38,584 bases of DNA, taken from a virus (Duplodnaviria; Caudoviricetes). The notes below the pieces were generated by a model. It saw only the letters and a program-made list of their open reading frames with translations, was not told where the DNA came from and did not search any database. Made by a program: the position numbers and the translations under genes. The stretch is taken from positions 1 to 38,584 of IMG/VR virus record IMGVR_UViG_3300020045_009961, one strand, 5' to 3'. Position 1 is the first letter of the stretch; each line of letters starts with the position of its first letter. This document shows, one piece after another, positions 8,196 to 38,446 of the stretch.

Positions 8196-8306
8196 AAAAA
8201 ACCCCAAGACCTGCCGCTGGTAGACGGCAAATAATGGGGCTAAGGGTTTTTATGCCTTATCAAAATAAACGCTACCAGACGCATTTGATAAGGCACTGCT
8301 ATTTTA
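8196..8306 (-). promoter_or_regulatory. Kissing-loop leader/attenuator 1
   Basis: -10 TAAAAT; hairpin TGCCTTATCAAA..CTGGTAG..TTTGATAAGGCA; terminator CCCCA..TGCCG-tCTACCAG-CGGCA..TGGGG then T-run. Confidence 0.85.
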
Positions 8307-8489
8307 ATACGTTATCGACTTATCGCCAATCAATATTTCTTGTTGATGTTCACACGCACATTCGAAGCTACATAGGTCGTCAACATCATCAATATCCATG
8401 TCACTCAAGCACCATGTGCATTGTTTAACTGGCTTGTCATCGGGCGGCGTTGAGTCGCCAAAACCTGACTTCGTATAGTTACTAGCCAT
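8304..8489 (-). CDS. Small Cys-rich hypothetical protein
   Basis: CTWC...CSFEC motif; in operon. Confidence 0.55.
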   Translation of the reverse strand: MASNYTKSGFGDSTPPDDKPVKQCTWCLSDMDIDDVDDLCSFECACEHQQEILIGDKSITY

Positions 8490-8491
8490 GA

Positions 8492-8878
8492 TTAACCCCC
8501 TGCCTTTTTACGCGTTATAAACCGTGATAAAGGCGTACTTTCTGAATAACCAACAGGGTTACAAGAACGACCTGATGGGAAGTTACAGAGACAATAATCT
8601 TCATCACTACAAGGGTAAATTTCAAACCATGCAAGAGAGTGAAACGTAAAGAATGGGACGTTTGGCACAATGTCATTATCGAATAATGAAGTTATACTAA
8701 GAACATGAAACTCACCGCCTAAATATTTACTATAACGGCGATACCATCTTGCATCATTGCGACTCGCTATTTTTTGCAAGCGGTAAAATCTATCGCTGTC
8801 ATTAACTTTAATGGCATCATTTATGGCTAGTATGATTTTTTTGTGCAGATTATCTGATTGAGTCAATAGTTCTTTCAT
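8492..8878 (-). CDS. Hypothetical protein
   Basis: ORF with AATCTGGAGAA RBS. Confidence 0.6.
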   Translation of the reverse strand: MKELLTQSDNLHKKIILAINDAIKVNDSDRFYRLQKIASRNDARWYRRYSKYLGGEFHVLSITSLFDNDIVPNVPFFTFHSLAWFEIYPCSDEDYCLCNFPSGRSCNPVGYSESTPLSRFITRKKAGG

Positions 8879-8891
8879 GCTGTTCTCCAGA

Positions 8892-9083
8892 TTAATAATT
8901 ACGCGCTTTCAAAAACTCATCAATCGCAGTTCGCACTATCCAGTTGATGCCACGCTCACTGTCTTGTTTGTACGCGGTCAATCTTGCATCTAACTCAGAA
9001 GATACTATGCTTCTGACTTCGTGACGTTTTGGACTATCACCCCTTGTTCTACCGCCGCCTATTTTTCGTTCTGCCCCAGCCAT
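8892..9083 (-). CDS. Ribbon-helix-helix DNA-binding protein
   Basis: VRSIVSSELDARL...INWIVRTAIDEFL strand-helix-helix pattern. Confidence 0.65.
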   Translation of the reverse strand: MAGAERKIGGGRTRGDSPKRHEVRSIVSSELDARLTAYKQDSERGINWIVRTAIDEFLKARNY

Positions 9084-9395
9084 TTACAAAACCCCCATTG
9101 AGCGTAAATTCAAATAAACAGACTCATTAAAGCTTCCACCTAAACTAGCCAGCGCGTTCTTAACTGCGCGGCTTTCGCTTCTATCCCATTTCAGCACGCT
9201 ATAACGCGCCTTTGCTTCTTTGCGAATAACAGCCATTTCCTTGCGAGACCATGAAAATTTATTGAATCGTTGAATGATAACCCACGCCATGCCTTTGATG
9301 GTCTTTACTACCCGAACGGCGTTTAATTTCATTTCTGCGGTGATTTCTGACAGTAGCATTAATTCTGCTATGTAGCGTTTAGTGATGTGTTTCAT
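9084..9395 (-). CDS. Hypothetical protein
   Basis: ORF with AATCTGGAGAA RBS. Confidence 0.6.
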   Translation of the reverse strand: MKHITKRYIAELMLLSEITAEMKLNAVRVVKTIKGMAWVIIQRFNKFSWSRKEMAVIRKEAKARYSVLKWDRSESRAVKNALASLGGSFNESVYLNLRSMGVL

Positions 9396-9495
9396 TTCAT
9401 TCTCCAGATTAATTTAATTTGCCCGTCCATCTATCGCACCGTTGCCGCCCGTTCCGTTAGGGCTTGCTACATGGTTTTCCTAACCAGTGGCGGCT

Positions 9496-9525
9496 ATTAT
9501 ACACACACCTGTTTTAATTCCGCAA
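9496..9525 (-). promoter_or_regulatory. Sigma70-type promoter for the recombination operon
   Basis: TTGCGG-18-TATAAT followed by a GC-rich leader hairpin (GCCGCC..GTTAGG..CCTAAC..GGCGGC). Confidence 0.55.
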
Positions 9526-9542
9526 GATTGGAATTAAAATAT

Positions 9543-9764
9543 TTATTCAGGTTCATATTTTTCACACCCTTTCGTTTCATCGCAACAAGCCCGCTCAAAG
9601 ATGTACTTGCCAGTGCAAATTCGCCCACCATTGAGTTTATCGCGTATGACTGACTCAATCATAGCGGGTGTAGCTCCACGGGCTTGATATGAGACGATTT
9701 GAGAGCATTTCCCCCAGCCATCTAGGTCGGTTGAGTGGTCAGGAATGAAGTGTTTGCAGGTCAT
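9543..9764 (-). CDS. Small Cys-rich hypothetical protein
   Basis: TCKHF...GKC...CEKY. Confidence 0.45.
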   Translation of the reverse strand: MTCKHFIPDHSTDLDGWGKCSQIVSYQARGATPAMIESVIRDKLNGGRICTGKYIFERACCDETKGCEKYEPE

Positions 9765-9787
9765 GGGTTTTTCTTATTTAGTATTGT

Positions 9788-10071
9788 GTGACTACTTTGA
9801 ATGCGTAATGTTACTGCTTTATGACTACTTTATTTTTATACATCCCATGAATTTCAAGGCTTGCGACTACTTCGACTACTGTTACGCTTTTTTAAAACTT
9901 TCATCGCCATAGAAAAACAAAATCATAAAAAATAAAAAATCATACCTAAAAGTTGTTACTGCTTTTTTTTCTCTATATACCCCCTTTTAAGTAGTAACAG
10001 TAGTCACAGTAGTAACGGGCTTTATTTATCAATAGCTTATCTGTTACTACTTTGTGACTACTGCGACTACT
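9788..10071. repeat. Iteron array, probable replication origin
   Basis: About 12 copies of a 9-mer close to G(T/C)(G/T)ACT(A/G)CT, three inverted in tandem at 9990-10016, around an AT-rich core, right after the primase-helicase stop. Confidence 0.8.
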
Positions 10072-10075
10072 AAAT

Positions 10076-12541
10076 TCAATCAACATGAACTTTAAACACA
10101 GTAACAAACACATCCTTAGCGCTATCAATACTACCTAACGACCAACCTTTAGCTAATCTAGTATCTGTCTTTGTAAAACCACAAGTCTTTAGAAACATTC
10201 CAAGCCCTATTGCTGTTTTTTTATCAAAATGTGTTATCCCTTTGTCTTTACACCACACCAAATAACTAGCATAAAGCTCTTTACTTGTATAATACTCGTT
10301 CCACTCCTCTAATCCGCCATACAAATACCCATTGTACAAACAATCAAGCAACCATTGAGCATCAGACGGTAATGAGTGGCGGCGTTGTTCTTTCAATCCA
10401 TTAGTTTCTGGTATTTTCCCAGTGTGGAAATTTGAAATATCACGATTTAACGCGCTATGCAAAAAAGCCGCCTGTACTTCTGGATTTCCGCAGTCCATCA
10501 CTAAGCTATTGAAATACTCGGTATCGCCTTTTTTATGCGGTGAAATGTCGAACACGCAGAACCGCCTACCATTTGCAGTAACAGGTACAGCATGGTCTGA
10601 GTTCGTAGACATTATTATTTTTAATCGACTTCTAAACGTTTCTTTTTCGAGTCCTTTGCCCTCAATATTGATAAACTTTTCAGTAACCAATCCCTTTAGC
10701 TTTCCCTCAGCCGCTTTATTCCCAGCAAAAAACGCCTCATCGGCAAATAAAAAACACGTTTCTCTTAATCTGGAATTAAAATTGCCAGTTAGCGATTCAG
10801 GCTCATCAATCTGCCACGCATGAATCCCCCAGATTGCCATTATCAGCTGTATTATTGTGCCTTTACCAGCACCCTCAACTCCTCGTAATACTAAAGACGA
10901 ACCTGCCACGTTTTCAGGGTTTTGGAAAATATACGCCACCCAATCATAAAAATAATCAATCAATTCTTGATTTCCAGCACACACAACATCACAAATATGT
11001 TCATGTATGAGTGCTAAACAGTCGTGGTTTTGCTTTGGTTCAACTGTAAAGCCTTGCCAAGTGTTAAGGGTGTTTTTTGGGTGATTGTTTGCTGGGTCAA
11101 AAATAGTTGATTCGTAGGTTGTTGACTTGTGATGTTTAGCCCACGCTCCGATGTGATTATCGTATTTTGCTTCACCGTTCGCCTTGTACCCGACCTGTAT
11201 TAATTTGTGTTGGTGATTCAATTCAAGTTCAAATTGATTAAAAAACTCATACTTTTTATGTTTTCCAACTTTTTCAGATAGCTCAGATATTCTTAAAATT
11301 CTATGTTTTCCCCCTAGTATTGTCTTACAAAATCTTTGGTTCATGATTTCAACGTGTTTTTCTAGTTGGTCTTGCCAATCAATAGACACTCTTTTATCAT
11401 CAACCAATACACCCTCTATTGATTGCTTGGCTATTTTATAAACAACCCCCCCATGCGCTTGGCTGTATATTTTTGGATTACCATCATTCCAAAAAAATTT
11501 GGCTTTAGTTAAACTCCCGCCATCATAATCAGGTTCAAAAGGGTCACGCATAGTCACGCCATTATGCGAGCCATCCATTTCACAAACTTTAAAAACTCCC
11601 TTCGTTGTCGTAACCTCAAAATCATGTGTTAAAACGTGGTTCTTTAATCCGTTCCAGTCTGATTCTGTTTTGCCCGTGGCAATATACGCGGCTTTCTTTT
11701 TGACAATAACCGCTTCATATTCGGGTCTAACTAACTTTTTAGCCGCGTTTTTTAGTGACTCTATTTGTGCTATTTCATCGGCGGTTAAATCTGGTATTGT
11801 TCGAGTGTCTAAAATATCGCCATCTATGACAACACAGTGATTATATTTTTGAGTTAAGCCATCGTTTAAAATTGGCTTAGCTTCAAATGCCAATCGTTCG
11901 CTATGCCCTAAAACTGTCTGGTCATAAATACCACGCTCTAAAAGCATTGGGTGTATGCCATTGCTTATTAAATAATTCCCATGTCCCGCCAACCACTGCC
12001 TACCCCATATAGCCACCGCAGCGCGTTGTATGTCGCTCATGTCTAGCACTGGTACAAAGATGTGCCGCCCTTTATCGCCAACTATTTCAACACCGTTTTT
12101 GTCAAAAATAAGGCTAGAGCTTGAAGGCTTAACAACCGCGCCAATACCGTTAAATTCTGGCAAAAATCTGTGTAAATCGGCGAATGTTTCGGGTCTACCG
12201 TCAATATCAAACAACATAAAACCAGAATGAGGCAGGTTTTTTAAAAACTCTAAAGAACGCGAAACAGCGTTGTCGCGTGGTTTGTCTTTGATAGTCAGGG
12301 CTATTTTTTCGCCAACAGCTAAAACCGTCTTATCAGGTCTAACAATTGAGCCGATGATAAGAGATTGTTTAATTGTTAGTCTGTTAATATGTTCGGCAAA
12401 ATCGTGTAATGTTTCGCAAGAATGCGCGGTGAAATGCCCGCGTGTTGGGTTTGCCAGTGATGACTTAACTAACTTGCCGTCAACTAAGGATAAGCTTTTA
12501 GCTTGGTTTGTGTCAGCGGTTAAAACAGAGTAATTAAGCAT
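10076..12541 (-). CDS. Primase-helicase (AEP-like N-terminus, SF3/DUF5906-type helicase)
   Basis: MLFDID and GRHIF primase motifs; GVEGAGKG Walker A, FADEA Walker B, MSTN, GRRF. Confidence 0.85.
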   Translation of the reverse strand: MLNYSVLTADTNQAKSLSLVDGKLVKSSLANPTRGHFTAHSCETLHDFAEHINRLTIKQSLIIGSIVRPDKTVLAVGEKIALTIKDKPRDNAVSRSLEFLKNLPHSGFMLFDIDGRPETFADLHRFLPEFNGIGAVVKPSSSSLIFDKNGVEIVGDKGRHIFVPVLDMSDIQRAAVAIWGRQWLAGHGNYLISNGIHPMLLERGIYDQTVLGHSERLAFEAKPILNDGLTQKYNHCVVIDGDILDTRTIPDLTADEIAQIESLKNAAKKLVRPEYEAVIVKKKAAYIATGKTESDWNGLKNHVLTHDFEVTTTKGVFKVCEMDGSHNGVTMRDPFEPDYDGGSLTKAKFFWNDGNPKIYSQAHGGVVYKIAKQSIEGVLVDDKRVSIDWQDQLEKHVEIMNQRFCKTILGGKHRILRISELSEKVGKHKKYEFFNQFELELNHQHKLIQVGYKANGEAKYDNHIGAWAKHHKSTTYESTIFDPANNHPKNTLNTWQGFTVEPKQNHDCLALIHEHICDVVCAGNQELIDYFYDWVAYIFQNPENVAGSSLVLRGVEGAGKGTIIQLIMAIWGIHAWQIDEPESLTGNFNSRLRETCFLFADEAFFAGNKAAEGKLKGLVTEKFINIEGKGLEKETFRSRLKIIMSTNSDHAVPVTANGRRFCVFDISPHKKGDTEYFNSLVMDCGNPEVQAAFLHSALNRDISNFHTGKIPETNGLKEQRRHSLPSDAQWLLDCLYNGYLYGGLEEWNEYYTSKELYASYLVWCKDKGITHFDKKTAIGLGMFLKTCGFTKTDTRLAKGWSLGSIDSAKDVFVTVFKVHVD

Positions 12542-12543
12542 AA

Positions 12544-12720
12544 TTAATCCCCATTTAAAATGCTTTCTATGGTTTGGTTTTTGTCTCTCGATAGCTTCTC
12601 AAATAGTGCCATCCTGATATAATCTGTGACGTGTAAAAGACCTGCTTTTTTTGATTCCTCACTTATCAGGGTTGCTATTTTTGTTGGGACTCTAGCACGC
12701 ACAACAGCATCTTTTTTCAT
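12544..12720 (-). CDS. Ribbon-helix-helix regulator (58 aa)
   Basis: Translated by hand MKKDAVVRARVPTKIATLISEESKKAGLLHVTDYIRMALFEKL...; GGAG RBS. Confidence 0.7.
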   Translation of the reverse strand: MKKDAVVRARVPTKIATLISEESKKAGLLHVTDYIRMALFEKLSRDKNQTIESILNGD

Positions 12721-12736
12721 TTACTCACTCCAATTA

Positions 12737-12762: not shown

Positions 12763-12778
12763 CATGAGGGGAGAGAAT

Positions 12779-14658: not shown

Positions 14659-14735
14659 GTTCTCATCGTCTAAAGGTTTAGGATAGTGGTCTTTCAAATC
14701 GCCGATGTTCGGTTCAAGTCCGACTGGGAACGCCA
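14659..14735 (+). tRNA. tRNA-Glu(UUC)
   Basis: Acceptor GTTCTCA/TGGGAAC, anticodon loop CT-TTC-AA, GGTTCAAGTCC T-arm, encoded CCA. Confidence 0.85.
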
Positions 14736-14970: not shown

Positions 14971-15041
14971 GCGGATACACAAAGGTTGTTAGCTTGCCTT
15001 CCAAGTAAGTAATTCGAGTTCGATTCTCGATATTCGCTCCA
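14971..15041 (+). tRNA. tRNA-Gly(UCC) with reduced D-arm
   Basis: GCGGATA/TATTCGC-T-CCA; CTTGC-CTTCCAA-GTAAG; TCGAG-TTCGATT-CTCGA; 71 nt. Confidence 0.75.
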
Positions 15042-16916: not shown

Positions 16917-18689
16917 ATGTCAACGCATAGAAGACAGGCACAAGCCGAACAGGCAATAATTAAAATTGGGCTAACTGATTTTGAAGTAAAAAAAGATGAT
17001 GGCAGGATTTCAATGCCTCGCGGCGATGGTCGGAATCCAAAATGGTATTTGCTGATTAGCGGCAAGTATTACGGATGGGCTAGAACGCTCGATTTTCTTG
17101 TCGAATTAGCAGAAAAAGCGCAACGCGAATTTGAAGCTGAAATAGCAGAAGCAGATGATTTAGAAATGAATCAAGTCGCTCAGGAATTGCCTGAATGCGA
17201 CGGTTTTGAACTTAAAGCCGATTCTTCATTTAAAGAAGGAATGAGAGTTAAGGGCGTGTATTTCGGTCAAGAATACCGAGGATTAATAAATTCTGAAACA
17301 AGACCAACGCCAGATTATAAAAATATGCAGTTTTGCGTAACGCTTGATTCCGAGATAGTTGTTTTTGGAAAAACAAGACAGTTAATTACAGTTATAACAA
17401 ATAACGAAAACAATACTATTTTTGCTGTTGAAGAAACCGAAGAATTTGAAGCCGAGCAAGAATTAGCTGAATGTGATGAGGTTATTGCGGAGAAACCACT
17501 AAAAATCAGTGTTGTTTTTACCGCAACAGATCGTGATTATAAATTACTCGATAAAAAAATAGTCGAGTACGAAATAAAATCGGTGGCTGATTTAACTCGC
17601 GGCGAAATTGAATGGAAACGAGATTTTGATGAGTTTCGCAAACATTACAAAACACCCGCTGGATTCCCCTCTGAGTTTTTAACCGATTTCAATTTTCATG
17701 CCCCAGTAGACCAAAAAGAGCGGATGCTGAAAGCTGGATTTCAAAGAGGGTCAACCCCTAATATGCTTAGGTTTACTATTATAAATTTTCATACGGTAAT
17801 GCTCGATGCGCCTGCAAGCGATATTTGCGAGGATTTTAATGATGAACCCACCATACCAGAACAAATCGCATTAGCAGAAAAAGAGGTTATTGCGGAAGCA
17901 GAAACGCTAACACGCGCCACTAACATCTCAAGAAAAATAACATACAACAGCGGCGCATGGATTGAAATAAACTATCTTGAAAATGTCGCAACAGTTAGCG
18001 ACCCTGAAAACTCAGATTTAGTAGAGCTGGCACGGCTGATTTTGACGGGTTTTGAAGAGTGCAACAAGGCAGTTGATTTACAATCTAAATTCGCTAAATG
18101 TGACGATGCCATCATCAATACGACATTTGCTGTGCATCGCGTCGAAAGCACTGATGATTGTGATGTTATGGTTTATGAGGTCTACAATAATTGGCTTGAG
18201 CGTTACGAAACAAACAGCGAATTTAAAACGCAAAAAGAAGCCGCCGATAGAATGAGCGAGATTGTTACTGAGTACAATCAAGAATCAATACAACCAACCA
18301 TCACCTACATAGCAAAGCCACAAGACCCACGCTTCTTATGGTGGTGCGTACAAGTACCAGAAGACCAAGAATTAGACGGAAAAAGAATAAACGCGCCCTT
18401 TCTAAAGAAAGGTACTGACCTAGAGTTAAAACTAGGTGATATGCTAATCGATAGTGAAGCTAATCATCATAGAAAAAATCGCGGATTTAGCGTGGTGCTT
18501 ATCGTGTGTGATGGCGAAAAAATCAGATACATACACCCTATGGCACAGCGCAAAGCCTTCATAAAAGCAAACGGCGGGCATGACCTAATGCACGAATCTG
18601 GTGATGTTAATGGGTGTATTAGAATGGCGGTTTGGTTGCGTAGACAGCCAGACATGAAATTGGCGATTGAGCAACTTTTAAAGGCGTAG
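16917..18689 (+). CDS. Large mosaic multi-domain early protein
   Basis: 590-aa ORF, GGAGG RBS, small domains joined by repeated acidic linkers. Confidence 0.8.
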   Translation: MSTHRRQAQAEQAIIKIGLTDFEVKKDDGRISMPRGDGRNPKWYLLISGKYYGWARTLDFLVELAEKAQREFEAEIAEADDLEMNQVAQELPECDGFELKADSSFKEGMRVKGVYFGQEYRGLINSETRPTPDYKNMQFCVTLDSEIVVFGKTRQLITVITNNENNTIFAVEETEEFEAEQELAECDEVIAEKPLKISVVFTATDRDYKLLDKKIVEYEIKSVADLTRGEIEWKRDFDEFRKHYKTPAGFPSEFLTDFNFHAPVDQKERMLKAGFQRGSTPNMLRFTIINFHTVMLDAPASDICEDFNDEPTIPEQIALAEKEVIAEAETLTRATNISRKITYNSGAWIEINYLENVATVSDPENSDLVELARLILTGFEECNKAVDLQSKFAKCDDAIINTTFAVHRVESTDDCDVMVYEVYNNWLERYETNSEFKTQKEAADRMSEIVTEYNQESIQPTITYIAKPQDPRFLWWCVQVPEDQELDGKRINAPFLKKGTDLELKLGDMLIDSEANHHRKNRGFSVVLIVCDGEKIRYIHPMAQRKAFIKANGGHDLMHESGDVNGCIRMAVWLRRQPDMKLAIEQLLKA

Positions 18690-20319: not shown

Positions 20320-20418
20320 ATAATCAGTTGTGTGCATACCTACACAGTTTAATCAACCGTGGCGGTATCACCACGGTTCAAGTTGTAGGTATATCGCTAC
20401 AACTGAACAAAGCACCGC

Positions 20419-20452
20419 AAACCCGCAAGCCGCAAGGATTAGCGGGTTTTTT
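20419..20452 (+). terminator. Intrinsic terminator where early and tail genes converge
   Basis: AAACCCGC..GCGGGTTTTTT; same stem and GTTGTCTAAA tail as 15197-15240. Confidence 0.8.
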
Positions 20453-20465
20453 GTTGTCTAAAATA

Positions 20466-23979: not shown

Positions 23980-25215
23980 TTAACTATCTTCCCAGCCTGT
24001 GATAATAATCGCGCCGTCATTTGACTGTACGATTGCCGCAATACTTGTTGACTCTAAGTCTAGCTGGTATGGCATATTTACCACCACTTGAAAGCCAAGC
24101 CACGAGGGTTCTACCCATAGCATATTAGATGCTGGTGGCGGATTTGTTGATATTACCGCCCCATACGCGGTATTGGGTGCGACTTGAACGTAACTTGACC
24201 CCATGCCCGTACCGTCCGTTGTTCCTAATAACGACCCCTTTATTACTGTAGCAGTCGGTGGCACAAAATTAGCAACCGACAAAGCAGAATAAACGCATGA
24301 TGTATAGCCAAATGTGCCAGTTGCCGTACTTATCAGAATAACAGCGTCAGGAACATTAGACCCCGCCGCTACTTTATAAGTCACGTTTCTACCCTTTTGA
24401 CTAAAGCTAAGCGGGTATTTATTTGCTGTGCCGTCCGTGCGAATCCAACCAACACGCGCAAAGTGCGTGTAGCCCGTTGGCAGTGTTGGGTTTGTTGCTG
24501 ATAATGACATTAAAGACGCTTTTGTATTGGTGTCAACGTCATAAATAACATACACAGCATACCAAGTATTAGCCGCCAGTGTTCCAGAGTCCAAACCATT
24601 AACACCACTTGCCGCACTATTAAGCGTGTAATTGCCGCTAAGCAAAAGTTTCCTGTTAGTACCGCTTTTAACGATTAACTCAGAGTAAGTGATAACAGTA
24701 TTTGCATTTGTGCCTGTTGCTGATAACTTGAGGTTATCAGCTTGGCGGCTAATAGATGGTGCGTTATCCGCAGTAAGATAATCCCCTGCCAGTGCAAAAT
24801 CATCAGCGTGAAGCCCGTCCACTGTATCGGCATTGCCACCATCACCAATTAATAGCCACCCTGTCATATCAGTGTTGGGGTTATTGGTATTATTGTCGAT
24901 AGTCGATAAAAACAGCCTGTTGTTATCATTGCGCTGTATTACCGCGCCCAATGGATAACCGCCTATGGCAGTGCTAAACGTACCATCATGCTTGTAATGT
25001 TTGCCAGCAAAAAACGATATACACGCTTGACTAATGCGCTTTAGAATCCCGTTAAAATCAATTCTAAATGGTGGCGCGTCAACCTGCGTTTCGGTCGGGA
25101 AACCAGCATTCCATCCCGCCCTGCCCGTGTCGTTCGTGTCCAGAATATCAGCCGCATCACCTGTATCGGCAAAGGGTTTGGTCATTTTTGTAATTGCGTT
25201 AAAATCTATTGTCAT
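23980..25215 (-). CDS. Tail fibre protein
   Basis: N-terminus GFP..T..PP.R.DFNGIL...IGGYPLGA...STIDNNTNNP typical of Bcep781/PB1-type fibres; NADTVDGLHA. Confidence 0.8.
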   Translation of the reverse strand: MTIDFNAITKMTKPFADTGDAADILDTNDTGRAGWNAGFPTETQVDAPPFRIDFNGILKRISQACISFFAGKHYKHDGTFSTAIGGYPLGAVIQRNDNNRLFLSTIDNNTNNPNTDMTGWLLIGDGGNADTVDGLHADDFALAGDYLTADNAPSISRQADNLKLSATGTNANTVITYSELIVKSGTNRKLLLSGNYTLNSAASGVNGLDSGTLAANTWYAVYVIYDVDTNTKASLMSLSATNPTLPTGYTHFARVGWIRTDGTANKYPLSFSQKGRNVTYKVAAGSNVPDAVILISTATGTFGYTSCVYSALSVANFVPPTATVIKGSLLGTTDGTGMGSSYVQVAPNTAYGAVISTNPPPASNMLWVEPSWLGFQVVVNMPYQLDLESTSIAAIVQSNDGAIIITGWEDS

Positions 25216-29856: not shown

Positions 29857-29975
29857 TATAATAACCACTGGTGTCGTAGCCAAAAAAAGCAGTAATCAAA
29901 CAAAGATGGTTTTTGTTATTGAGTTGGGTAAATTATTGCACCCTCTACGACCTCAATAATAGACCGTCTTTTTTT
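29857..29975 (+). promoter_or_regulatory. Kissing-loop leader/attenuator 5 (variant)
   Basis: TG-C-TATAAT; GTCGTAG at 29873-29879 and CTACGAC at 29945-29951 in the loop of AAAGATGGT..TTATTGAG/CTCAATAA..ACCGTCTTT then T-run. Confidence 0.75.
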
Positions 29976-29988: not shown

Positions 29989-30618
29989 ATGAATACTGAT
30001 TTAGTAACAAAAGATTTAACAACCACTTCTTTGGCTTTGGCTGAATTGTTTGGGAAACAGCCTAGTTCTGTTAATAGAACAATTCGCAATATTATCAAAG
30101 ATATGAGTGAAGATGAAATAGGACTGTGCAATATTGCACAGTCGTCTTATCTTAATGAGCAAAACAAAGAACAGCCTATGTTTATCCTGGGTGAAGAAAT
30201 GGCGTTAATTGTCACAGGTAGATTTACTGGTAAAAATGCGTTGACTGCTCAAATGAAATTAGCCAAAGCCTTTATTGCTATGCGTGATTACATTAAATCA
30301 AATCAAGCAAAATTGTCAGCCGATGATGAACGAATGCTTAAGTTGACTAGAATTAACCCGCAATGTCTTAAGGCGATAACTGGCAGTAGAAATAATAATG
30401 AAGTCGGTAGAAGCTATGAAGCGTTAGAGCTGGCTGGCATTATGGAGAGCGTTATCGAGTGGAAAAGTTTCAAGCGGTGGCGATTTACAGCCGATGGCTT
30501 GAACTATTGCAACGGCTACCACCAGGGAATACCACGATTTAAGGATGAAACGCACAACAAGGTTATGACAATGATTGAATCGGTTAAAATCGATAACCCA
30601 CAATTGAGTATATTTTAA
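29989..30618 (+). CDS. rha: Rha family phage regulatory protein
   Basis: TTTSLALAELFGKQ..V.RTIR, SSYLNEQNKEQPMFIL, FTGKNA...KAFIAM. Confidence 0.85.
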   Translation: MNTDLVTKDLTTTSLALAELFGKQPSSVNRTIRNIIKDMSEDEIGLCNIAQSSYLNEQNKEQPMFILGEEMALIVTGRFTGKNALTAQMKLAKAFIAMRDYIKSNQAKLSADDERMLKLTRINPQCLKAITGSRNNNEVGRSYEALELAGIMESVIEWKSFKRWRFTADGLNYCNGYHQGIPRFKDETHNKVMTMIESVKIDNPQLSIF

Positions 30619-31043
30619 TGAAACTAAGCAAGGCAAAACTAGCAATACTAAACACGCTGGCATCAAACGAATACGACTTATCAAGTCGTGAAATCCTTGA
30701 ACAGATAACAGCTAATGGTCAATTATCAACAAGCCTTTCATCTGTTTATGACTATGTTGAAGGCTTGAAAAAAGACGGATTAATCGAAAATGGAATTTCT
30801 GAGGTAGTCAAAGGCAAAACGGTTTTGATGTGGCGAATTACCGAAGCGGGTAGAACTGTAGTTAAGTGTGATAAGGACGCGGAATCGTTTGAAGCTGAAA
30901 TGATTGATGAACCCACCGCGTTACTGCGTAGCATTGATAACTTAGATGAAAAAATCAGCGTACTGCACAAGTTGTTGGGCGTTGTGCCTGTGGAATGGGA
31001 AGCGACACTGAATAGCATTATTGAGGATTTGCGGACACCTTAA
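30618..31043 (+). CDS. Winged-helix (PadR/MarR-like) protein
   Basis: AILNTL..LSSREI...SSVYDYVEGLKKDGLIE...WRITEAGR. Confidence 0.75.
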   Translation: MKLSKAKLAILNTLASNEYDLSSREILEQITANGQLSTSLSSVYDYVEGLKKDGLIENGISEVVKGKTVLMWRITEAGRTVVKCDKDAESFEAEMIDEPTALLRSIDNLDEKISVLHKLLGVVPVEWEATLNSIIEDLRTP

Positions 31044-31297: not shown

Positions 31298-33508
31298 TTA
31301 CAAGTCGAATAATGATTGCTGGCTAACATTAGTGGCATCATGCAAATTGCGTTTTGCAAGGTCAAAATATGACTTTTTAAGCTCGCTACCTATAAAACGC
31401 CGCCCCATACTTAATGCCACATACCCTTCGCTGCCAATCCCAGTAAACGGACTAAATACTAAGTCATCTTTTGCACTCCAAAGATTAATAGCTCGTTCGA
31501 TAACCTGTAATTGCAATGGACAAATATGGCGTTCATCGTCATTTTCACGCGCCGTTCTAAACTGCAAAGTATCAGATGGGTTTATATCCATCCATACTGG
31601 GCTGGCGTACTTTTGCCATAATTGCACTGGAAACTCATCATGAGTGTGGGATATAGGTTTATCATTATCCCCTGCTTTTCTCATTGTCACCAAATAATCA
31701 GGTATTCCTTGGCGACTCATTGCACTATCTTTACGGATAGTTTTGTGAAGTAATCCAAGTGCTTTAGTACGTTGCATTGCAGTCACTGGGTCTTTCCATA
31801 TCACCACCTCAGAATGAAAAATAAACCCAACAGACTGAAATAATCTAATTAAATCCCCGCGAAAGTCGCGAATACCGATAAAACCGTCATTTTGTTTTGA
31901 GCTTGGTAAGTTCATACAATGGAATGATACCAAACGCCCTGCACGGGTAATGCGATGCATTTCCTCTACTAAAAACTTAAAGTGAGTAAAAAACTCATTG
32001 TCACTTTTGCTGTTCCCCATGTCTCTTTCGCTATTGCTGTATGTGTACAGACTGCTAAACGGCGGACTAAAGATAGTAAAATCAATGATGCCATTCGGTA
32101 TTTCTCTAGCCAATTCTACACAATCTGACAAGTGCAACTCATACCGCGCATGGCGCACTAAATCGCGGGTATAGTCGTTGGTTTCTTTAACTGTTCCTAC
32201 TATTTCTTTTTGCATGGCGTTTCTCATATGGTCAATCATTGATATGGACATTTCATCGGCTAATTTTTGCTTTCTTTCAAGATTAGCTTTTACATTGCCC
32301 TCAATATCAGCGCTGAATAAGTGGGCATTAACTTCATTTTTTTGTCCAAATCTATAAAAACGTCTAACAGCCTGATAATAAGCCTCGAAGCTGTCGTTTA
32401 ACCCAACAAATGCAGTATTACTGCAATGTTGCCAATTTAAGCCCCACCCTGTGATAGATGGCTTTGTCACTAATACTCGTAATTCCCCACTTGTAAACTG
32501 TTCAATCAAACGCTCTTTTTTATCGATTGAATCACTGCCTTTTATGTCTTTTGCGCCGTTGATTAACTTAGCCAGTGATTCGCTTTCGTCGTTTAGATTG
32601 CACCACACTACCCATTGTTCTGTTGAGTTATTTACCAAATCAGCACACGCATCAACCCGTGATGATATTGTTCTTCGAGCAGCTTGTTTTCTTTCCATGA
32701 GTGTCGCGGCGTTTTTTATAAACAACTCGCCATCTAACAATTCATTGCTATCAATCACATGATTAACGATGTTTAGTGGAGGCAAAATATAGCCATCATC
32801 ACTATAACCTAAATCAGACGGCTTATTTATAGTGATAGCCCATGTTGCTAACCATTCCCAAAATTTAGCCGCGCCATGCCCCTTTAAACGCCACTTTGCA
32901 GTTTCACCGCCGTCATGAATAAAAAATTGAGCAAGCATTTCAGTCTGTGACATTATGCCTAAAAACTCTGACTGACTACCTAGCTCCATATAGTCGTTAG
33001 GGCTAGGCGTGGCGGTGCAAGATAGGCGATAAGGGATTAACTGGCACGACTCAATCAACTGGTTTCTAGTTTTTCCATTGATTGATTTTAGGATTGACGA
33101 TTCATCTAATACCACGCCACCGAATGATGAAAAATCAAATTTATCCATCATTTCATAGTTTGTAATATTAATTCCCTTTAATACTTGCGATTGTTCACGG
33201 CAATAATTTACATTAATCCCGTATTTTTCAGCTTCTTGCACTGTCTGTTTTGCTACGCATAAAGGAGCAAGAATTAAAACATTTTTACCAGTATGACTTG
33301 TTACATTATCAGCCCACGAACATTGACTAATGGTCTTTCCTAGACCTGTTCCAAAAAAAAGCGCGGCGCGTCCTTTTTTTAATGCCCACTTGACGCTGAT
33401 TTTTTGAAAATCAAATAGATTTGAATTTAGTGATGACAATTCCACGTCATGCCCACTTTCGACATGGATGGCTTTTTTTGAATCGATAAAATCTTGATAG
33501 CTTTGCAT
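31298..33508 (-). CDS. SNF2-like helicase fused to beta-class N4/N6 DNA methyltransferase
   Basis: GTGLGKT, LDESS, TATP, QAVRRFYRFGQ; then FSPPF (motif IV) before FSPFTGIGSEG (motif I); start revised to MQSYQDF. Confidence 0.9.
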   Translation of the reverse strand: MQSYQDFIDSKKAIHVESGHDVELSSLNSNLFDFQKISVKWALKKGRAALFFGTGLGKTISQCSWADNVTSHTGKNVLILAPLCVAKQTVQEAEKYGINVNYCREQSQVLKGINITNYEMMDKFDFSSFGGVVLDESSILKSINGKTRNQLIESCQLIPYRLSCTATPSPNDYMELGSQSEFLGIMSQTEMLAQFFIHDGGETAKWRLKGHGAAKFWEWLATWAITINKPSDLGYSDDGYILPPLNIVNHVIDSNELLDGELFIKNAATLMERKQAARRTISSRVDACADLVNNSTEQWVVWCNLNDESESLAKLINGAKDIKGSDSIDKKERLIEQFTSGELRVLVTKPSITGWGLNWQHCSNTAFVGLNDSFEAYYQAVRRFYRFGQKNEVNAHLFSADIEGNVKANLERKQKLADEMSISMIDHMRNAMQKEIVGTVKETNDYTRDLVRHARYELHLSDCVELAREIPNGIIDFTIFSPPFSSLYTYSNSERDMGNSKSDNEFFTHFKFLVEEMHRITRAGRLVSFHCMNLPSSKQNDGFIGIRDFRGDLIRLFQSVGFIFHSEVVIWKDPVTAMQRTKALGLLHKTIRKDSAMSRQGIPDYLVTMRKAGDNDKPISHTHDEFPVQLWQKYASPVWMDINPSDTLQFRTARENDDERHICPLQLQVIERAINLWSAKDDLVFSPFTGIGSEGYVALSMGRRFIGSELKKSYFDLAKRNLHDATNVSQQSLFDL

Positions 33509-33522: not shown

Positions 33523-33638
33523 AAAAAACCCGCAATACCAAGAGTCGTGGTCTCGGCGTAAACGGGTTTAGTGTAAAAGCATTATGCTTTTCTTTAAGTC
33601 CCCACGACAGGCATACAGAAAAGCACAGACAAATAATA
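33523..33638 (-). promoter_or_regulatory. Kissing-loop leader/attenuator 2
   Basis: TG-T-TATTAT; TGCTTTTCT..GTCGTGG..AGAAAAGCA; AAACCCG..GCCGAGA-CCACGAC-TCTTGGT..CGGGTTTTTT. Confidence 0.85.
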
Positions 33639-33730
33639 ACACGATGGTATAATAATTCAAACAAATATTACGCACGACCTTGTAAATTGTTTTGGTGAAA
33701 TGGCATGATACAATCCACCGCGCCTACGCC

Positions 33731-34021
33731 CTACCCCTCATAAATCAATTCAAACCGCCCGCCCAACCCATCCCACGCAGGCGGGGTTTGTCCCTGAGTA
33801 TCTTGAAAGTAAAGTGTACCCGCAAAACCGCGATAGTCGGTAAAAATAACGGGCTGTCTATCTAGGCACAACACGTTATCACATATTTTCACATTATTTG
33901 ATACCAGACCAAAATACAACCCATTATCACGCTGTAGTAGTGTTATTGTGCAATATTGACCATTTAGCGCAACACTAAAGACTTGATTTGCATTAGGGTA
34001 TAGCGGTATTTTTAGTTTCAT
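33731..34021 (-). CDS. Baseplate plug-type protein
   Basis: IPL..ANQVFSVALNGQ...YRGFAGTLYFQDTQG..P.WDGLGGRFELIY. Confidence 0.75.
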   Translation of the reverse strand: MKLKIPLYPNANQVFSVALNGQYCTITLLQRDNGLYFGLVSNNVKICDNVLCLDRQPVIFTDYRGFAGTLYFQDTQGQTPPAWDGLGGRFELIYEG

Positions 34022-34560
34022 TGGGTAACTTCCTCTGGTGTAACCTGACCATTGTGTACCTGCTCACTGGCTGTAATTTCTGCGGTATCGTCAATGCGTG
34101 TATTGCCATTTAACCGCACTTCTCGCAACTTAAACGACACGCCAACCGATGAATAAAAGTTGTTAGGGTCACGATAGCCTTGCGCTCCAATAACGGATAA
34201 GTTGTCATGCACAATATCAGGTGTTACAAGCTTATACAGTTGAACACTATCAACCGCCACCGCCACATCTTCTAAAAATTGCCGCCGCTTTTGCGGGTCT
34301 GTCACCGTTACAAACATGGTAGCACTCATAGGGCTTCGGACTTTATCATGAGACGTGAACCCGCCCTCAATAGGGTCATCAATGATAAAAGCGGTATTCA
34401 TGTTGTCGTAACTTAGCCCCCCGTCCCATTCCAGAACAGGCAAATCGTCCATTGTTAGCAGATAAAAACGCCGTTGTTTTGTAGGCGTTAATGGAGTTGT
34501 CGTATCGCTTACCGTGATAGTGGGTAGCTCAATAATTGGGTCTATCGGCGTTAATATCAT
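34018..34560 (-). CDS. Dit-like/tail tube initiator baseplate protein
   Basis: DDPIEGGFTSHDKVRSP, LYKLVTPD, LREVR; follows tape measure. Confidence 0.7.
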   Translation of the reverse strand: MILTPIDPIIELPTITVSDTTTPLTPTKQRRFYLLTMDDLPVLEWDGGLSYDNMNTAFIIDDPIEGGFTSHDKVRSPMSATMFVTVTDPQKRRQFLEDVAVAVDSVQLYKLVTPDIVHDNLSVIGAQGYRDPNNFYSSVGVSFKLREVRLNGNTRIDDTAEITASEQVHNGQVTPEEVTQ

Positions 34561-36572
34561 GACTTCATACCGCTACTGTAAGGTGCTGTTTTTGAAATAT
34601 TTGAAAGCTCGGATTTAATCTCTTTCGCGGCTTGAGTTGGATCGGTAGATTTAACATGAATTTGAATATTGTTTGTGGTTGACGATTGTGGCGTGGCTGT
34701 TGGCTGTGGATTAGCAAGGGATTTTGTATCGACTGCGGGCGGTTGCAATGACAATGGCTGTGCAATAGATTTTGTATCAACTACGGGCGGTTTCATTTTA
34801 TTAATCGCTTCATAATACCCGTACTCTTTCGCAAGATGGGGCGTGGGATTAAATGATTCACCGTTGCGTAATCGCGTTTGATGCTTAGCCCACTTCACAT
34901 AGCCCGTTCCAATTAGCTCACTTGCTTCATCTCGCTCAATATCTGGTTTAGCTAAAAACTTTTCAGCTTTTGGGTATTTGCCGCTTTTCATTTCGGCAAC
35001 TTGGAACGCCGCCTGAGCGTCAATCGCCGCTTGAGAACGCTCCATTTTCCCGCTTTGCATCAATCCTTTTTGCTTCATGTATTCACGCAATGCGGGATTT
35101 CTGTCACCCTGCATTGAAATCATGCCGATGTTTTGCCCACCAGCTTTGTCGGTGTGCGTACCAAACATAAACTGTGAATTAAAATCATTTTCACGCCCTA
35201 CCTCGCTGGTCATTGTTGCCGCTTGATTGTGACTCAAACCTTGTTTTCTATATGCTTCATACGTCATGCTCATATTTTCTTTTTGTTCCGCGCTTGAGGT
35301 TTGCGCTTTAGGTGTGACTGGTTCGCTTTCATAGCTACTGCCGCCAATACCGCCCTCACTACTAACACCACCAGTGCCTTTGCCACCTTCCTTATCCAGT
35401 CCAAGGAAATTAATCACCGACACTGGCAACATATCCATCACAGATTTTTTAATTCTATCAAACGCGCTTTCTAGCCCTGATAAATTAGTAGTTTCAATTT
35501 TTTTTGTTGCTAACGCGGTTTTGTCAAGTTCAGCGTTAGTCTCAACAAGTGCCTTTTTACGCTCTTTTTCTTGCTTTGCTATTTTTTCAGCAGTTTTTAG
35601 CCAGTCTGCTTGCCTATCACCTACTTTAACCCATGAGTTAAGCTTAGGGGTTAGCGCGTCAATAAAGCCGTCAAAATCGCTTATTGGGTGTGTTAGACCT
35701 TGATAAATTCGTGACGATTCAGATAATAGCTCATCAATAACAACGCCCACGCCCTCAGTTAAGTCAGCAGCTAATGGCGTGAAATTTCTCGCCGTTTGTT
35801 TTGATGCTAAATCAATGCTTTGTGCTACCTTAGCCCACGCACTAGCCAATCTCTTAGCTTCCTCAGTGTCGTATTCCGTAACATGACTACGCGCCTTTTC
35901 AAGTTCTAACGCTTTTTCACGCTCATCATTACCCATTCGTAAAATTGGCAAAAACGCGGCATCAAAACCCATAGTTTGCATTCTGGTAGATGCGTATGAT
36001 TCAGCTTCTTTGTTGGTTCTGCCATGTGCTAATTGAATCTTGACAAGGTTGTCATACACTTGCTTATAAACTGCTATCGCTTTTTCAGGGTCGCCACCAC
36101 GCAATGCAGAAACATCTATACCAGCGGCAAGTGCGTCCGTGCCGACAACATCCCTAATGCCCATTTGACCACTAAGCATCTTTGCTTTATCACTGGCAAA
36201 CTTAGCAATTAATCCGCTCGTGGTCTCAATAGATACGCCAGACTGCTCGAAAGCCCGTTGCATTGCCATTATTGAATCAATGCTTATGTCGTTGGTCTTT
36301 GAGAAATTATCAAGGTTTCGGGTGGCAACTGCCACGTCTTTAATGTAGTTTGGCACGACTAACGCGGTATTAATAGCCATACCAACACCACGCCCAACAA
36401 CTGCCAATTCAGCCGATACTTTAGCCACATCACTTAATGTGCCGCTTAGTGTCCGTCCATATTTAGATGCTTCTTGATTTAAGTCAGTAATACTTTTTTT
36501 GGTGTCTTTTATGCCCTTGGCTGATTTGCTACCATCAAAACCTAGGAGTATAAGGGCTTCCTCAACTATCAT
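34557..36572 (-). CDS. Tape measure protein with C-terminal lysozyme-like domain
   Basis: MIVEEALILLGFD start, helical body, GLSHNQAATMTSEVGREN...GMISMQGDR. Confidence 0.85.
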   Translation of the reverse strand: MIVEEALILLGFDGSKSAKGIKDTKKSITDLNQEASKYGRTLSGTLSDVAKVSAELAVVGRGVGMAINTALVVPNYIKDVAVATRNLDNFSKTNDISIDSIMAMQRAFEQSGVSIETTSGLIAKFASDKAKMLSGQMGIRDVVGTDALAAGIDVSALRGGDPEKAIAVYKQVYDNLVKIQLAHGRTNKEAESYASTRMQTMGFDAAFLPILRMGNDEREKALELEKARSHVTEYDTEEAKRLASAWAKVAQSIDLASKQTARNFTPLAADLTEGVGVVIDELLSESSRIYQGLTHPISDFDGFIDALTPKLNSWVKVGDRQADWLKTAEKIAKQEKERKKALVETNAELDKTALATKKIETTNLSGLESAFDRIKKSVMDMLPVSVINFLGLDKEGGKGTGGVSSEGGIGGSSYESEPVTPKAQTSSAEQKENMSMTYEAYRKQGLSHNQAATMTSEVGRENDFNSQFMFGTHTDKAGGQNIGMISMQGDRNPALREYMKQKGLMQSGKMERSQAAIDAQAAFQVAEMKSGKYPKAEKFLAKPDIERDEASELIGTGYVKWAKHQTRLRNGESFNPTPHLAKEYGYYEAINKMKPPVVDTKSIAQPLSLQPPAVDTKSLANPQPTATPQSSTTNNIQIHVKSTDPTQAAKEIKSELSNISKTAPYSSGMKS

Positions 36573-36600
36573 AACAATACCTTAGCGCAAAAATAAAACC

Positions 36601-36634
36601 ATTATGGCACAAAAAAGCCGCTGTTACGCGGCTT
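36601..36634 (-). terminator. Terminator followed by restart promoter for the tape measure gene
   Basis: AAGCCGC-gtaaca-GCGGCTTTTTT then TG-C-CATAAT. Confidence 0.7.
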
Positions 36635-36642
36635 AGTTGGCA

Positions 36643-37275
36643 TTAATTAAAAAGTGATTCCGTCTCATGGAGTAGCCTAACCAGCTCTTTTATTTTCTGG
36701 TCATAAAGTAGTGTGTTGCCCTTTCTGCCAATACAAAGATTCCCAAGTTTAGCCGTGGGTGTTTTAACGGTGTATTTTTGCCAATAATCCTTGCTAGTTA
36801 AATATCCATGTCGCTCTAATAGGTCGTGGTCAGCCTGTACATGATAGCTTGGCTTGTCCAGTATTACCGCTAATGAATTTAAATCGCGTGGCTCACGTTT
36901 GTCGAATAATTCCATTGTGGCTGCTTGTTGCGTGATGACGGTTTGGAGATTTTTAAGTTCACGAACGGAATTATTGGCAACATAATCAAAAGTATCAATG
37001 ACGTGTAGCGCAAACTCAGAACTTAGCCACATAGCATAAGAGTAAACAAGCTGTTTTGCCACAAATGTTCCAAGTCCTTGTTTTATAACAATAGGCGGTT
37101 TTCCGCCTATTGAATGAATCAATAAAATCAATTCCTTAGCTTGCTTTGTTTGCAACCAATATTTAGGTCTATCAGCGTTTAGACCGCCGCTCGCTTTGTG
37201 CAAATCATTAACACAATAAAATCCGTTTTCATTGGTTCTTATTGATACGCTGTTAATTACTAAACCAGTATTCAT
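36643..37275 (-). CDS. KilA-N domain protein
   Basis: IRTNENGFYCVNDLHKASGG...PKYWL...GTFVAKQLVYSYAMWLSSEFALHVIDTF. Confidence 0.9.
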   Translation of the reverse strand: MNTGLVINSVSIRTNENGFYCVNDLHKASGGLNADRPKYWLQTKQAKELILLIHSIGGKPPIVIKQGLGTFVAKQLVYSYAMWLSSEFALHVIDTFDYVANNSVRELKNLQTVITQQAATMELFDKREPRDLNSLAVILDKPSYHVQADHDLLERHGYLTSKDYWQKYTVKTPTAKLGNLCIGRKGNTLLYDQKIKELVRLLHETESLFN

Positions 37276-37295
37276 TTTTTAATTTTCCTTTGGAC

Positions 37296-37408
37296 AAAAA
37301 AATACCCGTGTACCTGAATAGTCGGATATTCAAATGACACGGGCTAAGGTTTTGACCTTAAAAAGATAAACGCTCCGACACGCACTTTTTAAAGACAAAG
37401 CAATTATA
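37296..37408 (-). promoter_or_regulatory. Kissing-loop leader/attenuator 3
   Basis: TG-G-TATAAT; TTAAAAAG-TGCG-tGTCGGAg-CGT..CTTTTTAA; CCCGTGT..TGAATA-TCCGAC-TATTCA..ACACGGG then T-run. Confidence 0.85.
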
Positions 37409-37412
37409 CCAC

Positions 37413-37437
37413 AAAAGCCCCAATCAAGGGGCTTTTT
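37413..37437. terminator. Bidirectional intrinsic terminator
   Basis: AAAAGCCCC-aatcaa-GGGGCTTTTT. Confidence 0.85.
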
Positions 37438-37438
37438 A

Positions 37439-37675
37439 TCAAATAGACAACAAAGTGCGATTGTAATCATTGACTTGTATAATCTCTAACAAGTCGTAAA
37501 CATCACGCATATCATAGACCGTTTTTAATTCATGTAGTGTTGCTAAGCCGTTGCTAATAAGCAGTGAGAAGTAAGGGTGGATATTGACCGTTTCAACTAA
37601 ATCACCCGCGTGCTTATGTGGGTTAGTTTGTGAAAAAGGGCGTAGATTTAATGGTCTACGCCCCACCAAAAATCC
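37439..37675 (-). CDS. Tail assembly chaperone C-terminal (-1 frameshift) segment
   Basis: GLATLHELKTVYDMRDVYDLLEII; -1 frame relative to upstream gene, no convincing RBS. Confidence 0.75.
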   Translation of the reverse strand, partial: GFLVGRRPLNLRPFSQTNPHKHAGDLVETVNIHPYFSLLISNGLATLHELKTVYDMRDVYDLLEIIQVNDYNRTLLSI

Positions 37676-38106
37676 GTGTGCAGTGTTATTGCTTCCTCAA
37701 CTAAAAAAGCTATGTTTCGTGCATCCGTGATTTGAGCGTCAAGCATAAAATTAACCTCCTGCCCTTTGTCATTGATAAAAAGCACGGTGCTTAGTAGCTT
37801 GTCGCTCAATGTTTTAAAGTGCGTAGGCGATAGAAACCGCATAGCCTTGACAACCATCAAGCGCATATCATGCTTGGGGTCGTCGCTTTTTGGCAATTGA
37901 CCACCAAACTTTTTATAAAAAAAGTCAATTAATCCGCTAATTGCAATCGTACCCTGCCATTCATCGGTGTTAAGTGTTCCTTGCCCAAAGTAGTGTATTG
38001 ATTCCTGTGCGAATAGGTATTCAGTATAAGCGGGGAATGTGGACACGGTAAAAACTTTGCCTTTATCCGCGCCGTAGGGGAGTGTTACTTTTCTAGTTTG
38101 CATCAA
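37648..38106 (-). CDS. Tail assembly chaperone
   Basis: GADKGKVFTV...LHTDF; upstream of tape measure; slippery G GAT TTT near 3' end. Confidence 0.75.
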   Translation of the reverse strand: MMQTRKVTLPYGADKGKVFTVSTFPAYTEYLFAQESIHYFGQGTLNTDEWQGTIAISGLIDFFYKKFGGQLPKSDDPKHDMRLMVVKAMRFLSPTHFKTLSDKLLSTVLFINDKGQEVNFMLDAQITDARNIAFLVEEAITLHTDFWWGVDH

Positions 38107-38294
38107 ATAACCTCTGCATTGCGTATTAACTCTATGATTTCTTCTTTTGTTTCCATTACATGGATAAAATTATCAGCTTCCATCCATATAGTAGTTTTTC
38201 CCTCTATCGCTGTATCACTAAACATCGTTATTTTATCAGCAACAATGTTTCTCTGTGTCATGCCTTGCACTTCGGTTAGTGTGATTATTTTCAT
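38103..38294 (-). CDS. Small hypothetical protein
   Basis: Start revised to MKIITL; ATGA overlap with chaperone. Confidence 0.6.
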   Translation of the reverse strand: MKIITLTEVQGMTQRNIVADKITMFSDTAIEGKTTIWMEADNFIHVMETKEEIIELIRNAEVI

Positions 38295-38307
38295 TTCTTT
38301 ACCCAAC

Positions 38308-38446
38308 AAAAACCCCGCGTGTCATCGGTTGCTGCAATGACTAGAAGCGGGGTCTTTATAAATCAAAATAGGATTTTCATTAAGTCCAGCAACGGCTTTT
38401 CTGAAAATTACAGGGCAATTATAGTCCTGCGATTGTCTTTTTACAA
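38308..38446 (-). promoter_or_regulatory. Kissing-loop leader/attenuator 4 with its promoter
   Basis: TTGTAA-17-TATAAT; ATTTTCA..GCC-GTTGCTG-GACTT..TGAAAAT; ACCCCGC..GTCATTG-CAGCAAC-CGATGAC..GCGGGGTTTTT. Confidence 0.85.

Follow-up and report, generated by a model that had tools for sequence, protein, structure and literature searches.

The RNA elements described here are best compared with the guanidine-IV RNAs (GGAM-1 or mepA motif), in which a kissing interaction between the loops of two hairpins has been proposed to exclude the outer pairs of a terminator, the kiss competing with elongation of the stem between 88 and 105 nucleotides (nt) (PMC7736828, PMC11611296). The present work deals with five leaders of a similar kind in a virus of the Caudoviricetes (IMG/VR record IMGVR_UViG_3300020045_009961), for which the window, that is, the whole stretch of DNA analysed, is the entire virus record of 38,584 bases with a GC content of 41%. 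In each leader the loop of a first hairpin carries a short sequence, its code, which is complementary to a partner located within a terminator-like hairpin. These kissing-loop leader terminators constitute a real, uncatalogued family and a variant of a known architecture.

As in guanidine-IV, the folds predicted for our leaders comprise two hairpins, the second one an intrinsic terminator with its U-run, in an RNA of similar size, and a covarying loop-loop pseudoknot joins them, with a side bulge as the partner in one subtype (B). On the other hand, the highly conserved loop nucleotides of the guanidine-IV ligand pocket are absent here (19 or more codes, none of whose positions is invariant), and instead of sugE and mepA the leaders precede genes for Rha, KilA-N, AntA, helicase, methyltransferase and nuclease proteins. 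Moreover, they occur in multiple copies per phage genome, each copy with a distinct code, and they have no match in Rfam. The leaders would work most like guanidine-IV, yet they do not appear to be members of that class, as they have no conserved pocket and an unrelated cargo. Rfam searches, including models of the C4 type as advised in a first-pass annotation made from the sequence alone, gave no leader match for the window (E≤5), for 13 related loci (E≤1) or for 18 excised leaders (E≤10), which leaves the architecture uncatalogued. In the literature consulted, including the main texts of motif surveys, the phage family is not described; the supplements of PMC5737381 and PMC10690425 may list the motif unnamed.

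Other RNAs offer more partial parallels. The CI RNA of P4 (seqA/seqC; PMC4825925) and the c4 RNA of P1/P7 (PMC12197685), to which the first-pass annotation had conceptually related the leaders, are also phage leader RNAs with pairing within one transcript, and they control genes of the antirepressor type, a position that here fits B, D and homologues and not A, C and E. In the present leaders, however, both complementary sites lie inside one RNA of ~100 nt, composed of two simple hairpins and repeated as several independent copies per genome. No further loop copy that could serve as a second target site was found within 600 nt of A-D, whereas E has one further 7-mer within that distance and its code recurs 11 further times on that strand. 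Structure, flanking sequences and Rfam results thus speak against membership of the c4/CI class. The IsrK RNA of the Salmonella prophage Gifsy-1, which acts mainly on translation through an upstream open reading frame (ORF) and a long downstream pairing (PMC4825925), resembles the scheme proposed for our leaders in having a promoter, a short terminated RNA and partial read-through into an antirepressor gene, and its short form can act on the long one. Here, in contrast, the longest complementarity to the downstream 150 nt amounts to 6-8 nt and is AU-rich, and the terminator stem does not include the purine-rich stretch that precedes the start codon, the start region being located past the U-run.

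A terminator heading a selfish or toxic gene is also found in T4 mobE, where a 5′ intrinsic terminator limits the nuclease transcript (PMC2790892), and distant members of our family do precede HNH, NUMOD4 and GIY-YIG genes; the mobE terminator, however, is a plain 9-bp hairpin in a promoterless gene, with neither an upstream hairpin nor loop pairing. Similarly, the zipper-type attenuator of the plasmid pLS20, which has a 456-nt leader and works by strand exchange with the terminator stem (PMC13401043), is an RNA-only attenuator heading a mobile-element operon in which an upstream stem-loop pairs with the terminator, whereas here only unpaired tip or bulge bases pair and no competing antiterminator helix is predicted. 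Finally, the same terminator-loop pseudoknot has been proposed, in a metabolic setting, for a candidate motif before a formate-tetrahydrofolate ligase gene (PMC11109978).

Five leaders with complementary loops

The leaders, here named A to E (Table 1), share one layout. A predicted sigma70 promoter, whose -10 box reads TATAAT in B, D and E and has one mismatch each in A and C, is followed by hairpin 1, a linker, a long hairpin resembling a terminator and a U-run, with an ATG 13-22 nt past the run. This arrangement, already described in the first-pass annotation, was found again in all five cases, and its ten loop motifs were recovered at identical positions, every pair being an exact reverse complement. 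Two details have to be amended. Pairing was thought to join loop to loop, and five complementary pairs do exist, but the partner of B occupies a bulge on the 3′ side of the terminator, beneath a small inserted hairpin, and not an apical loop. Likewise, each copy was credited with a pair of its own, and the five codes are indeed different, but loop 1 of C can also pair with the partner of B through six Watson-Crick and one G-U pair (-8.2 kcal/mol, against -8.5 kcal/mol for B's own pair), so that the codes of the window are not fully orthogonal; the remaining cross pairs reach -5.4 kcal/mol or weaker. The pairing of D spans 6 nt. In predicted folds the terminator-like hairpins score between about -18 and -24 kcal/mol, the nested ensemble of each of the five leaders gives a pairing probability near 1 for the lower terminator stem, and fold stability is significant (z -2.5 to -6.9). 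No sixth leader was found in the window.

Chance was gauged with a scanner that seeks a partner of at least 6 or at least 7 nt in an upstream hairpin loop, and which misses B and two of the homologues (G361 and G362). Among 113 terminator-like hairpins of the window, four had a partner of at least 6 nt and three one of at least 7 nt (B being missed), compared with means of 0.82 (maximum 3) and 0.26 (maximum 2), respectively, for 100 rounds of random upstream windows. With the count restricted to terminators scoring -17 kcal/mol or better, none was found in any of 12 dinucleotide shuffles of the window. Distant terminase loci, 615 kb in all, contained a single match of at least 7 nt among 897 terminator-like hairpins. 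Loop complementarity in the five leaders is thus confirmed to lie far above chance.

Homologues of the five leaders were sought by blastn against 463 fetched loci, and each leader found one distinct full-length homologue: A1, C1 and E1 in genome G001, B2 in G002 and D12 in G012. All five retain perfect pairing, and in three of them the code has changed, loop 1 differing from the window at two (A1), three (C1) and two (D12) positions, each of them compensated in the partner. A, D, A1 and D12 also served to build a covariance model, blind to the kiss, that was run over 365 kb; its next five matches, with weak E values of 0.14-0.86, were the already known G6, C, C1 and G9 and a new member, H1, which has a complementary 6-nt pair and heads the helicase gene of G001. 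Patterns describing the terminator stem alone yielded three more homologues (G361, G362 and L492), all of them complementary. Once pattern matches lacking the leader layout had been set aside, pairing was kept in nine out of nine homologues retrieved with no loop-pairing requirement, most of them with changed codes. Beyond E1, which has the code of E, the other E homologues (H1, G361 and G362) carry other codes, as do the C homologue L492 and Bk1, a homologue of B in G001. Codes may also stay unchanged between phages, as in B/B2, E/E1 and G361/G362. G001 carries five leaders with five codes, and a family member is present on a contig of a Methylobacter metagenome-assembled genome (MAG). Alignments across subtypes, either by MAFFT or fitted to the model, were poor, and the covariation reported here consists of anchored pairwise comparisons and is not a count of the R-scape type. 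A further model, R1, found members in none of 151 genomes, a search that was insensitive, since it also missed G011, which holds one. Altogether, these comparisons point to a real, conserved RNA architecture in which loop pairing is upheld by paired changes; the covariation among codes that the first-pass annotation had seen within one genome extends to homologues with compensated loop changes.

Some members depart from the common plan. L492 (~1500-1600, minus strand) is a C-type leader of swapped polarity, in which loop 1 carries the motif normally found in the partner, and the terminator loop the one normally found in loop 1. Variants with three hairpins, due to an extra small hairpin in the linker, were found in G007 (L171, 2023-2148 and 2596-2725), L167 (13002-13117) and L169 (16910-17027); between the two copies in G007, a single loop pair is changed, with compensation.

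Wider pattern scans gave a mixed picture. A viral scan fixing only the terminator and four partner bases returned 108 distinct matches, 26 of them terminator-like; a partner of at least 6 nt was present in the upstream loop of 10 of these, compared with 4 of 77 swapped controls (p=1e-4, for sequences that are related and not independent). The first viral pattern scan had real members in only 3 of 39 contigs (40 loci). A linker pattern recovered two homologues among 12 loci, the remaining 10 having neither the layout nor a blastn match, and with a C-type pattern 2 of 5 loci were members, the other three being one unrelated sequence. In metagenomes, 110 distinct matches (4 too near an end, 80 without a suitable terminator and 26 terminator-like) showed no enrichment, with a partner of at least 6 nt in 2 of 26 versus 10 of 520 shuffled, and yielded one convincing member, L350. 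This last scan was dominated by an unrelated element of ~40 bases, in which a U-run is preceded by two small hairpins and whose sequence hardly varies among contigs of ~31% GC (L273, L276, L279, L285, L287, L294, L309, L310, L317, L326, L344, L346, L348 and L364).

Loop pairing and read-through

The transcribed strand outfolds its complement in 22 of 23 members, with G-U pairs, an asymmetry which indicates that the structure is a feature of the RNA. Loop 1 follows the -10 box at a distance of 22-25 nt in all ten long-hairpin members and of 9-11 nt in the three B-type members, and the box is an exact TATAAT in 9 of 13 members, against 1.4% expected by chance. From this fixed spacing, hairpin 1 would start at the predicted 5′ end of the transcript, and the terminated RNA would measure 97-108 nt. 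Many members from the viral scan carry instead a TAnnTTTG box, which we take to be a promoter motif of Bacteroidota. A U at position 2 of loop 1 together with a purine at position 4 occurs in 10 of the 13 members whose selection did not involve that motif, and a comparison of 19 distinct codes, to which two more were later added, revealed no invariant position, the best one being the U at position 2 (18 of 19).

The reading that we favour, a plausible though still tentative one, is a ligand-free attenuator in cis in which the loop kiss would favour read-through into the cargo gene. RNA polymerase has a footprint of ~14 nt. The partner ends 15-19 nt ahead of the U-run in all 23 members, at least nine of which were picked by patterns constraining that distance, so the partner would leave the polymerase just as the U-run is reached; with the 14-nt footprint, the partner is exposed and the terminator still unformed at the first U in all five leaders of the window. 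It could then pair with the already folded loop 1 before the 3′ arm of the terminator becomes free, and the kiss would slow or prevent the closing of the terminator stem, which is unusually long, in the manner proposed for guanidine-IV but without a ligand. A set fraction of transcripts would in this manner read through into the cargo gene, which might serve for dosing DNA-acting and potentially harmful products such as antirepressor-type regulators, methyltransferases and, elsewhere, homing endonucleases. It is the possibility that the kiss forms first, together with the precedent of guanidine-IV, that inclines us towards such an attenuator. The termination switch set by loop pairing that the first-pass annotation had suggested would have a direct precedent in guanidine-IV, and the terminator limiting T4 mobE (PMC2790892) is a further one for the dosing of a nuclease. 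Control of translation by sequestering the ribosome site was considered for the window leaders and rejected, their start regions lying beyond the terminator.

Other considerations weigh against the attenuator. A rigid-helix model, crude and not decisive, makes the kiss and the full terminator mutually exclusive in only 7 of 21 elements, while two are borderline and 12, including B and E, are compatible. In the long subtype both hairpins have similar heights (14-19 versus 15-18 steps), which in this model would equally well suit a side-by-side kiss in the finished, terminated RNA. Furthermore, the D cassette, which lies in the late region, is bordered by ordinary terminators, so that a separate antiterminator is probably required by the phage in any case, and such a factor could override the leaders. 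Without a recognised input signal, a leader may also be a fixed valve rather than a switch.

The same geometry leads to a second reading, doubtful although it deserves attention, in which the kiss coexists with the full terminator and stabilises either termination or the terminated RNA. Leaders would be off by default, and the cargo would be expressed only when a factor of the phage or the host, such as a processive antiterminator or a protein binding the kiss helix, overrides them. The compatible elements and matching hairpin heights just mentioned fit this proposal, as do the strong terminators with their firmly paired lower stems, the kinds of cargo that benefit from tight repression and the ordinary terminators around D that late transcription has to cross in any case. 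Nevertheless, the terminators are predicted to form unaided, no candidate factor was identified, and guanidine-IV, the one experimentally studied class of this architecture, runs in the opposite direction.

The first-pass annotation had also raised the idea that the terminated RNAs act in trans as signals of specificity or immunity. Spelled out, terminated RNAs of ~100 nt would use their free loops to pre-empt the cis kiss on nascent RNAs of the same code, giving a pulse of expression in a naive cell followed by shut-off, and silencing incoming phages that carry the same code. We regard this as unlikely, even if several traits are in line with it: codes are all different within the window (5), G001 (5), G003 (2) and G007 (2); 21 distinct codes are known in all; base pairing of the predicted 5′ end should make the RNA more stable; the U/purine bias of loop 1 resembles the U-turn loops of antisense systems (PMC4152353); and two phage RNAs derived from leaders, P4 CI and IsrK, act in trans on the operon from which they arise (PMC4825925). 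Accelerated evolution of the codes relative to the rest of the leader was, however, not detected, whether between orthologues (7 of 35 loop positions differ versus 70 of 451 elsewhere, p=0.47) or between paralogues (6 of 14 versus 53 of 170, p=0.38). The cross-pairing of B and C and the identical codes persisting across phages are equally hard to reconcile with such addresses, a kiss of 6-7 bp that does not extend into a longer duplex is weak compared with its intramolecular competitor, and no integrase or repressor was recognised in the incomplete genome. The proposal of trans specificity or immunity is thus unsupported so far.

Type III toxin-antitoxin loci have a layout of promoter, structured RNA, terminator and gene. 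This match, and the significant fold stability of the five leaders, would suit a case in which the terminated RNA is itself the product, a small pseudoknotted protein-binding RNA similar to an antitoxin or a decoy, the gene being expressed from plain leakage. We find it very improbable, as one leader subtype heads unrelated proteins, one cargo family takes different subtypes, and no loop position is invariant. Lastly, chance complementarity in ordinary terminators or an inverted-repeat element at the DNA level, for which the 6-nt matches that the scanner meets by chance and the unenriched metagenome scan could be invoked, is hardly credible in view of the random-window, shuffle and distant-locus controls, the asymmetric folding of the two strands, with G-U pairs, the constant spacing of the promoter and the nine complementary homologues found blind to the loops, and it is contradicted by the compensatory changes.

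Cargo genes and genome context

Leaders and cargo genes have been reassorted. The KilA-N gene follows a D-type leader in the window and a B-type leader in G001, and the helicase gene follows a C-type leader in the window and an E-type leader in G001, whereas E-type leaders also precede Rha (G361) and an AntA-like ORF (G362). The leader L492 precedes a methyltransferase gene, and many distant members from the viral scan precede GIY-YIG, NUMOD4-HNH or DUF6291/DUF1376 genes. Conversely, in the family to which the Methylobacter MAG belongs, 22 of 346 genomes provided 23 Rha-like loci, and the scanner, which misses some members, showed no leader at any of them; with the same limit, it detected none before the five helicase-methyltransferase homologues examined out of 436 GenBank records. 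Judging from these comparisons, the leader is not intrinsic to its cargo. The reassortment, the leaderless distant homologues of the cargo and the terminators flanking D would together define a portable expression head for mobile cassettes.

Table 1. Leaders, cargo genes and other features located in the window
Feature	Position	Strand	Details
Leader A	8196..8306	-	-10 box 8301-8306; long hairpin 1; loop code 8272-8278; partner 8217-8223 in terminator-like hairpin; U-run from 8201
Leader B, short-hairpin subtype	29857..29975	+	extended -10 box 29857-29862; 4-bp hairpin 1; A-rich linker; loop code 29873-29879; partner 29945-29951, 3′ side bulge of long terminator; U-run from 29969
Leader C	33523..33638	-	-10 box 33633-33638; long hairpin 1; loop code 33602-33608; partner 33544-33550 in terminator-like hairpin; U-run from 33528
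Leader D, same subtype as A	37296..37408	-	extended -10 box 37403-37408; loop code 37374-37379; partner 37321-37326; U-run from 37302
Leader E	38308..38423	-	-10 box 38418-38423 with -35 at 17 bp; loop code 38387-38393; partner 38328-38334; U-run from 38312
Cargo of A: protein of 214 amino acids	7529..8173	-	no Pfam/PHROG match; Atlas structure rows resemble Pam3_Gp34 and Gp3-like proteins (a lead only)
Exonuclease gene after cargo of A	6624..7520	-	phrog_149; weaker RecE-like phrog_434
Cargo of B: Rha-family regulator	29989..30618	+	PF09669
PadR-like gene after Rha	30618..31043	+	
Cargo of C: SNF2-type helicase fused to N6/N4 DNA methyltransferase	31298..33508	-	
Cargo of D: KilA-N domain protein	36643..37275	-	PF04383
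Cargo of E: ORF of 63 amino acids	38103..38294	-	no Pfam/PHROG match; Atlas FlbD-like small fold (a lead only)
Tail assembly chaperone gene	37648..38106	-	phrog_1932; directly after small ORF of E
Two-way ordinary terminator-like hairpin	37413..37437	.	just upstream of D promoter; would insulate the cassette
Ordinary terminator-like hairpin	36615..36634	-	after KilA-N; would close the D cassette
tRNA genes Glu(ttc), Gly(tcc)	14659-14735, 14971-15041	+	only Rfam matches at gathering score

The Rha and KilA-N genes of the window, beginning at 29989 and 37275, share nearly identical first codons, which hints at a common cassette ancestry at the leader-gene junction. In comparison with its counterpart in G001 (L001 6173-6604), the PadR-like gene of the window is inverted relative to the late genes; neither a Rha gene nor a leader was found before the PadR-like gene of G001. 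In G012, the Rha-like gene behind leader D12 (L435, 8690-9275) seems to be split across two reading frames.

Among the genes of the window are those for terminase, primase, exonuclease, baseplate, tape measure and further tail proteins, but no capsid, integrase or repressor gene was recognised among them, and the virus record is probably incomplete. No close relative of the window was found in GenBank. The best named relative of its terminase, with 55% identity, lies on a 40-kb contig of the Methylobacter MAG, a match that does not amount to a host assignment, and a terminase-based search of viral sequences yielded mainly distant phages. Among GenBank phages, the tail region and leaders C and D had no DNA match and two leaders of the Bacteroidota type no useful one, and for this reason no cultured carrier was found. 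RNA runs were also looked up, with no RNA holder among those listed.

Other parts of the window show features of their own. Between the tail block and the small ORFs, positions 20323-20455 (plus strand) hold a long imperfect hairpin followed by a terminator-like element; this terminator part is shared with G001, and the region as listed gave a weak, sub-threshold Trp_leader match. An ORF of 590 amino acids without Pfam or PHROG match (16917-18689, plus strand) runs opposite to its neighbours. The tail fibre gene (23980-25215, minus strand) has a weak match to the second domain of Mtd, below the cut-off, and no reverse transcriptase was recognised in the window.

A proposed portable valve for DNA-acting cargo

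The leader family spans phage-like contigs with promoters of both the sigma70 and the Bacteroidota type, to which the window contributes non-nuclease cargo, the loop-bulge subtype and the reassortment of leaders and cargo. The leaders offer a natural, ligand-free series for the question posed in the guanidine-IV papers, namely how kissing loops control a terminator without strand exchange. The same portable RNA valve would serve phages repeatedly, for DNA-acting cargo of very different kinds. There is also an outside chance of a widespread, address-coded negative feedback made of RNA only, where the cis kiss permits read-through and the own terminated RNA blocks kisses of the same code in trans. 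If this were true, phages could produce independent, self-limiting pulses of antirepressor, methyltransferase or nuclease expression, and co-infecting phages could silence each other in a code-specific way with neither a protein nor an antisense gene. Should the terminated RNAs indeed act in trans, they would represent a new RNA-coded form of autoregulation or immunity, and would supply a ready-made set of regulatory parts that are nearly orthogonal.

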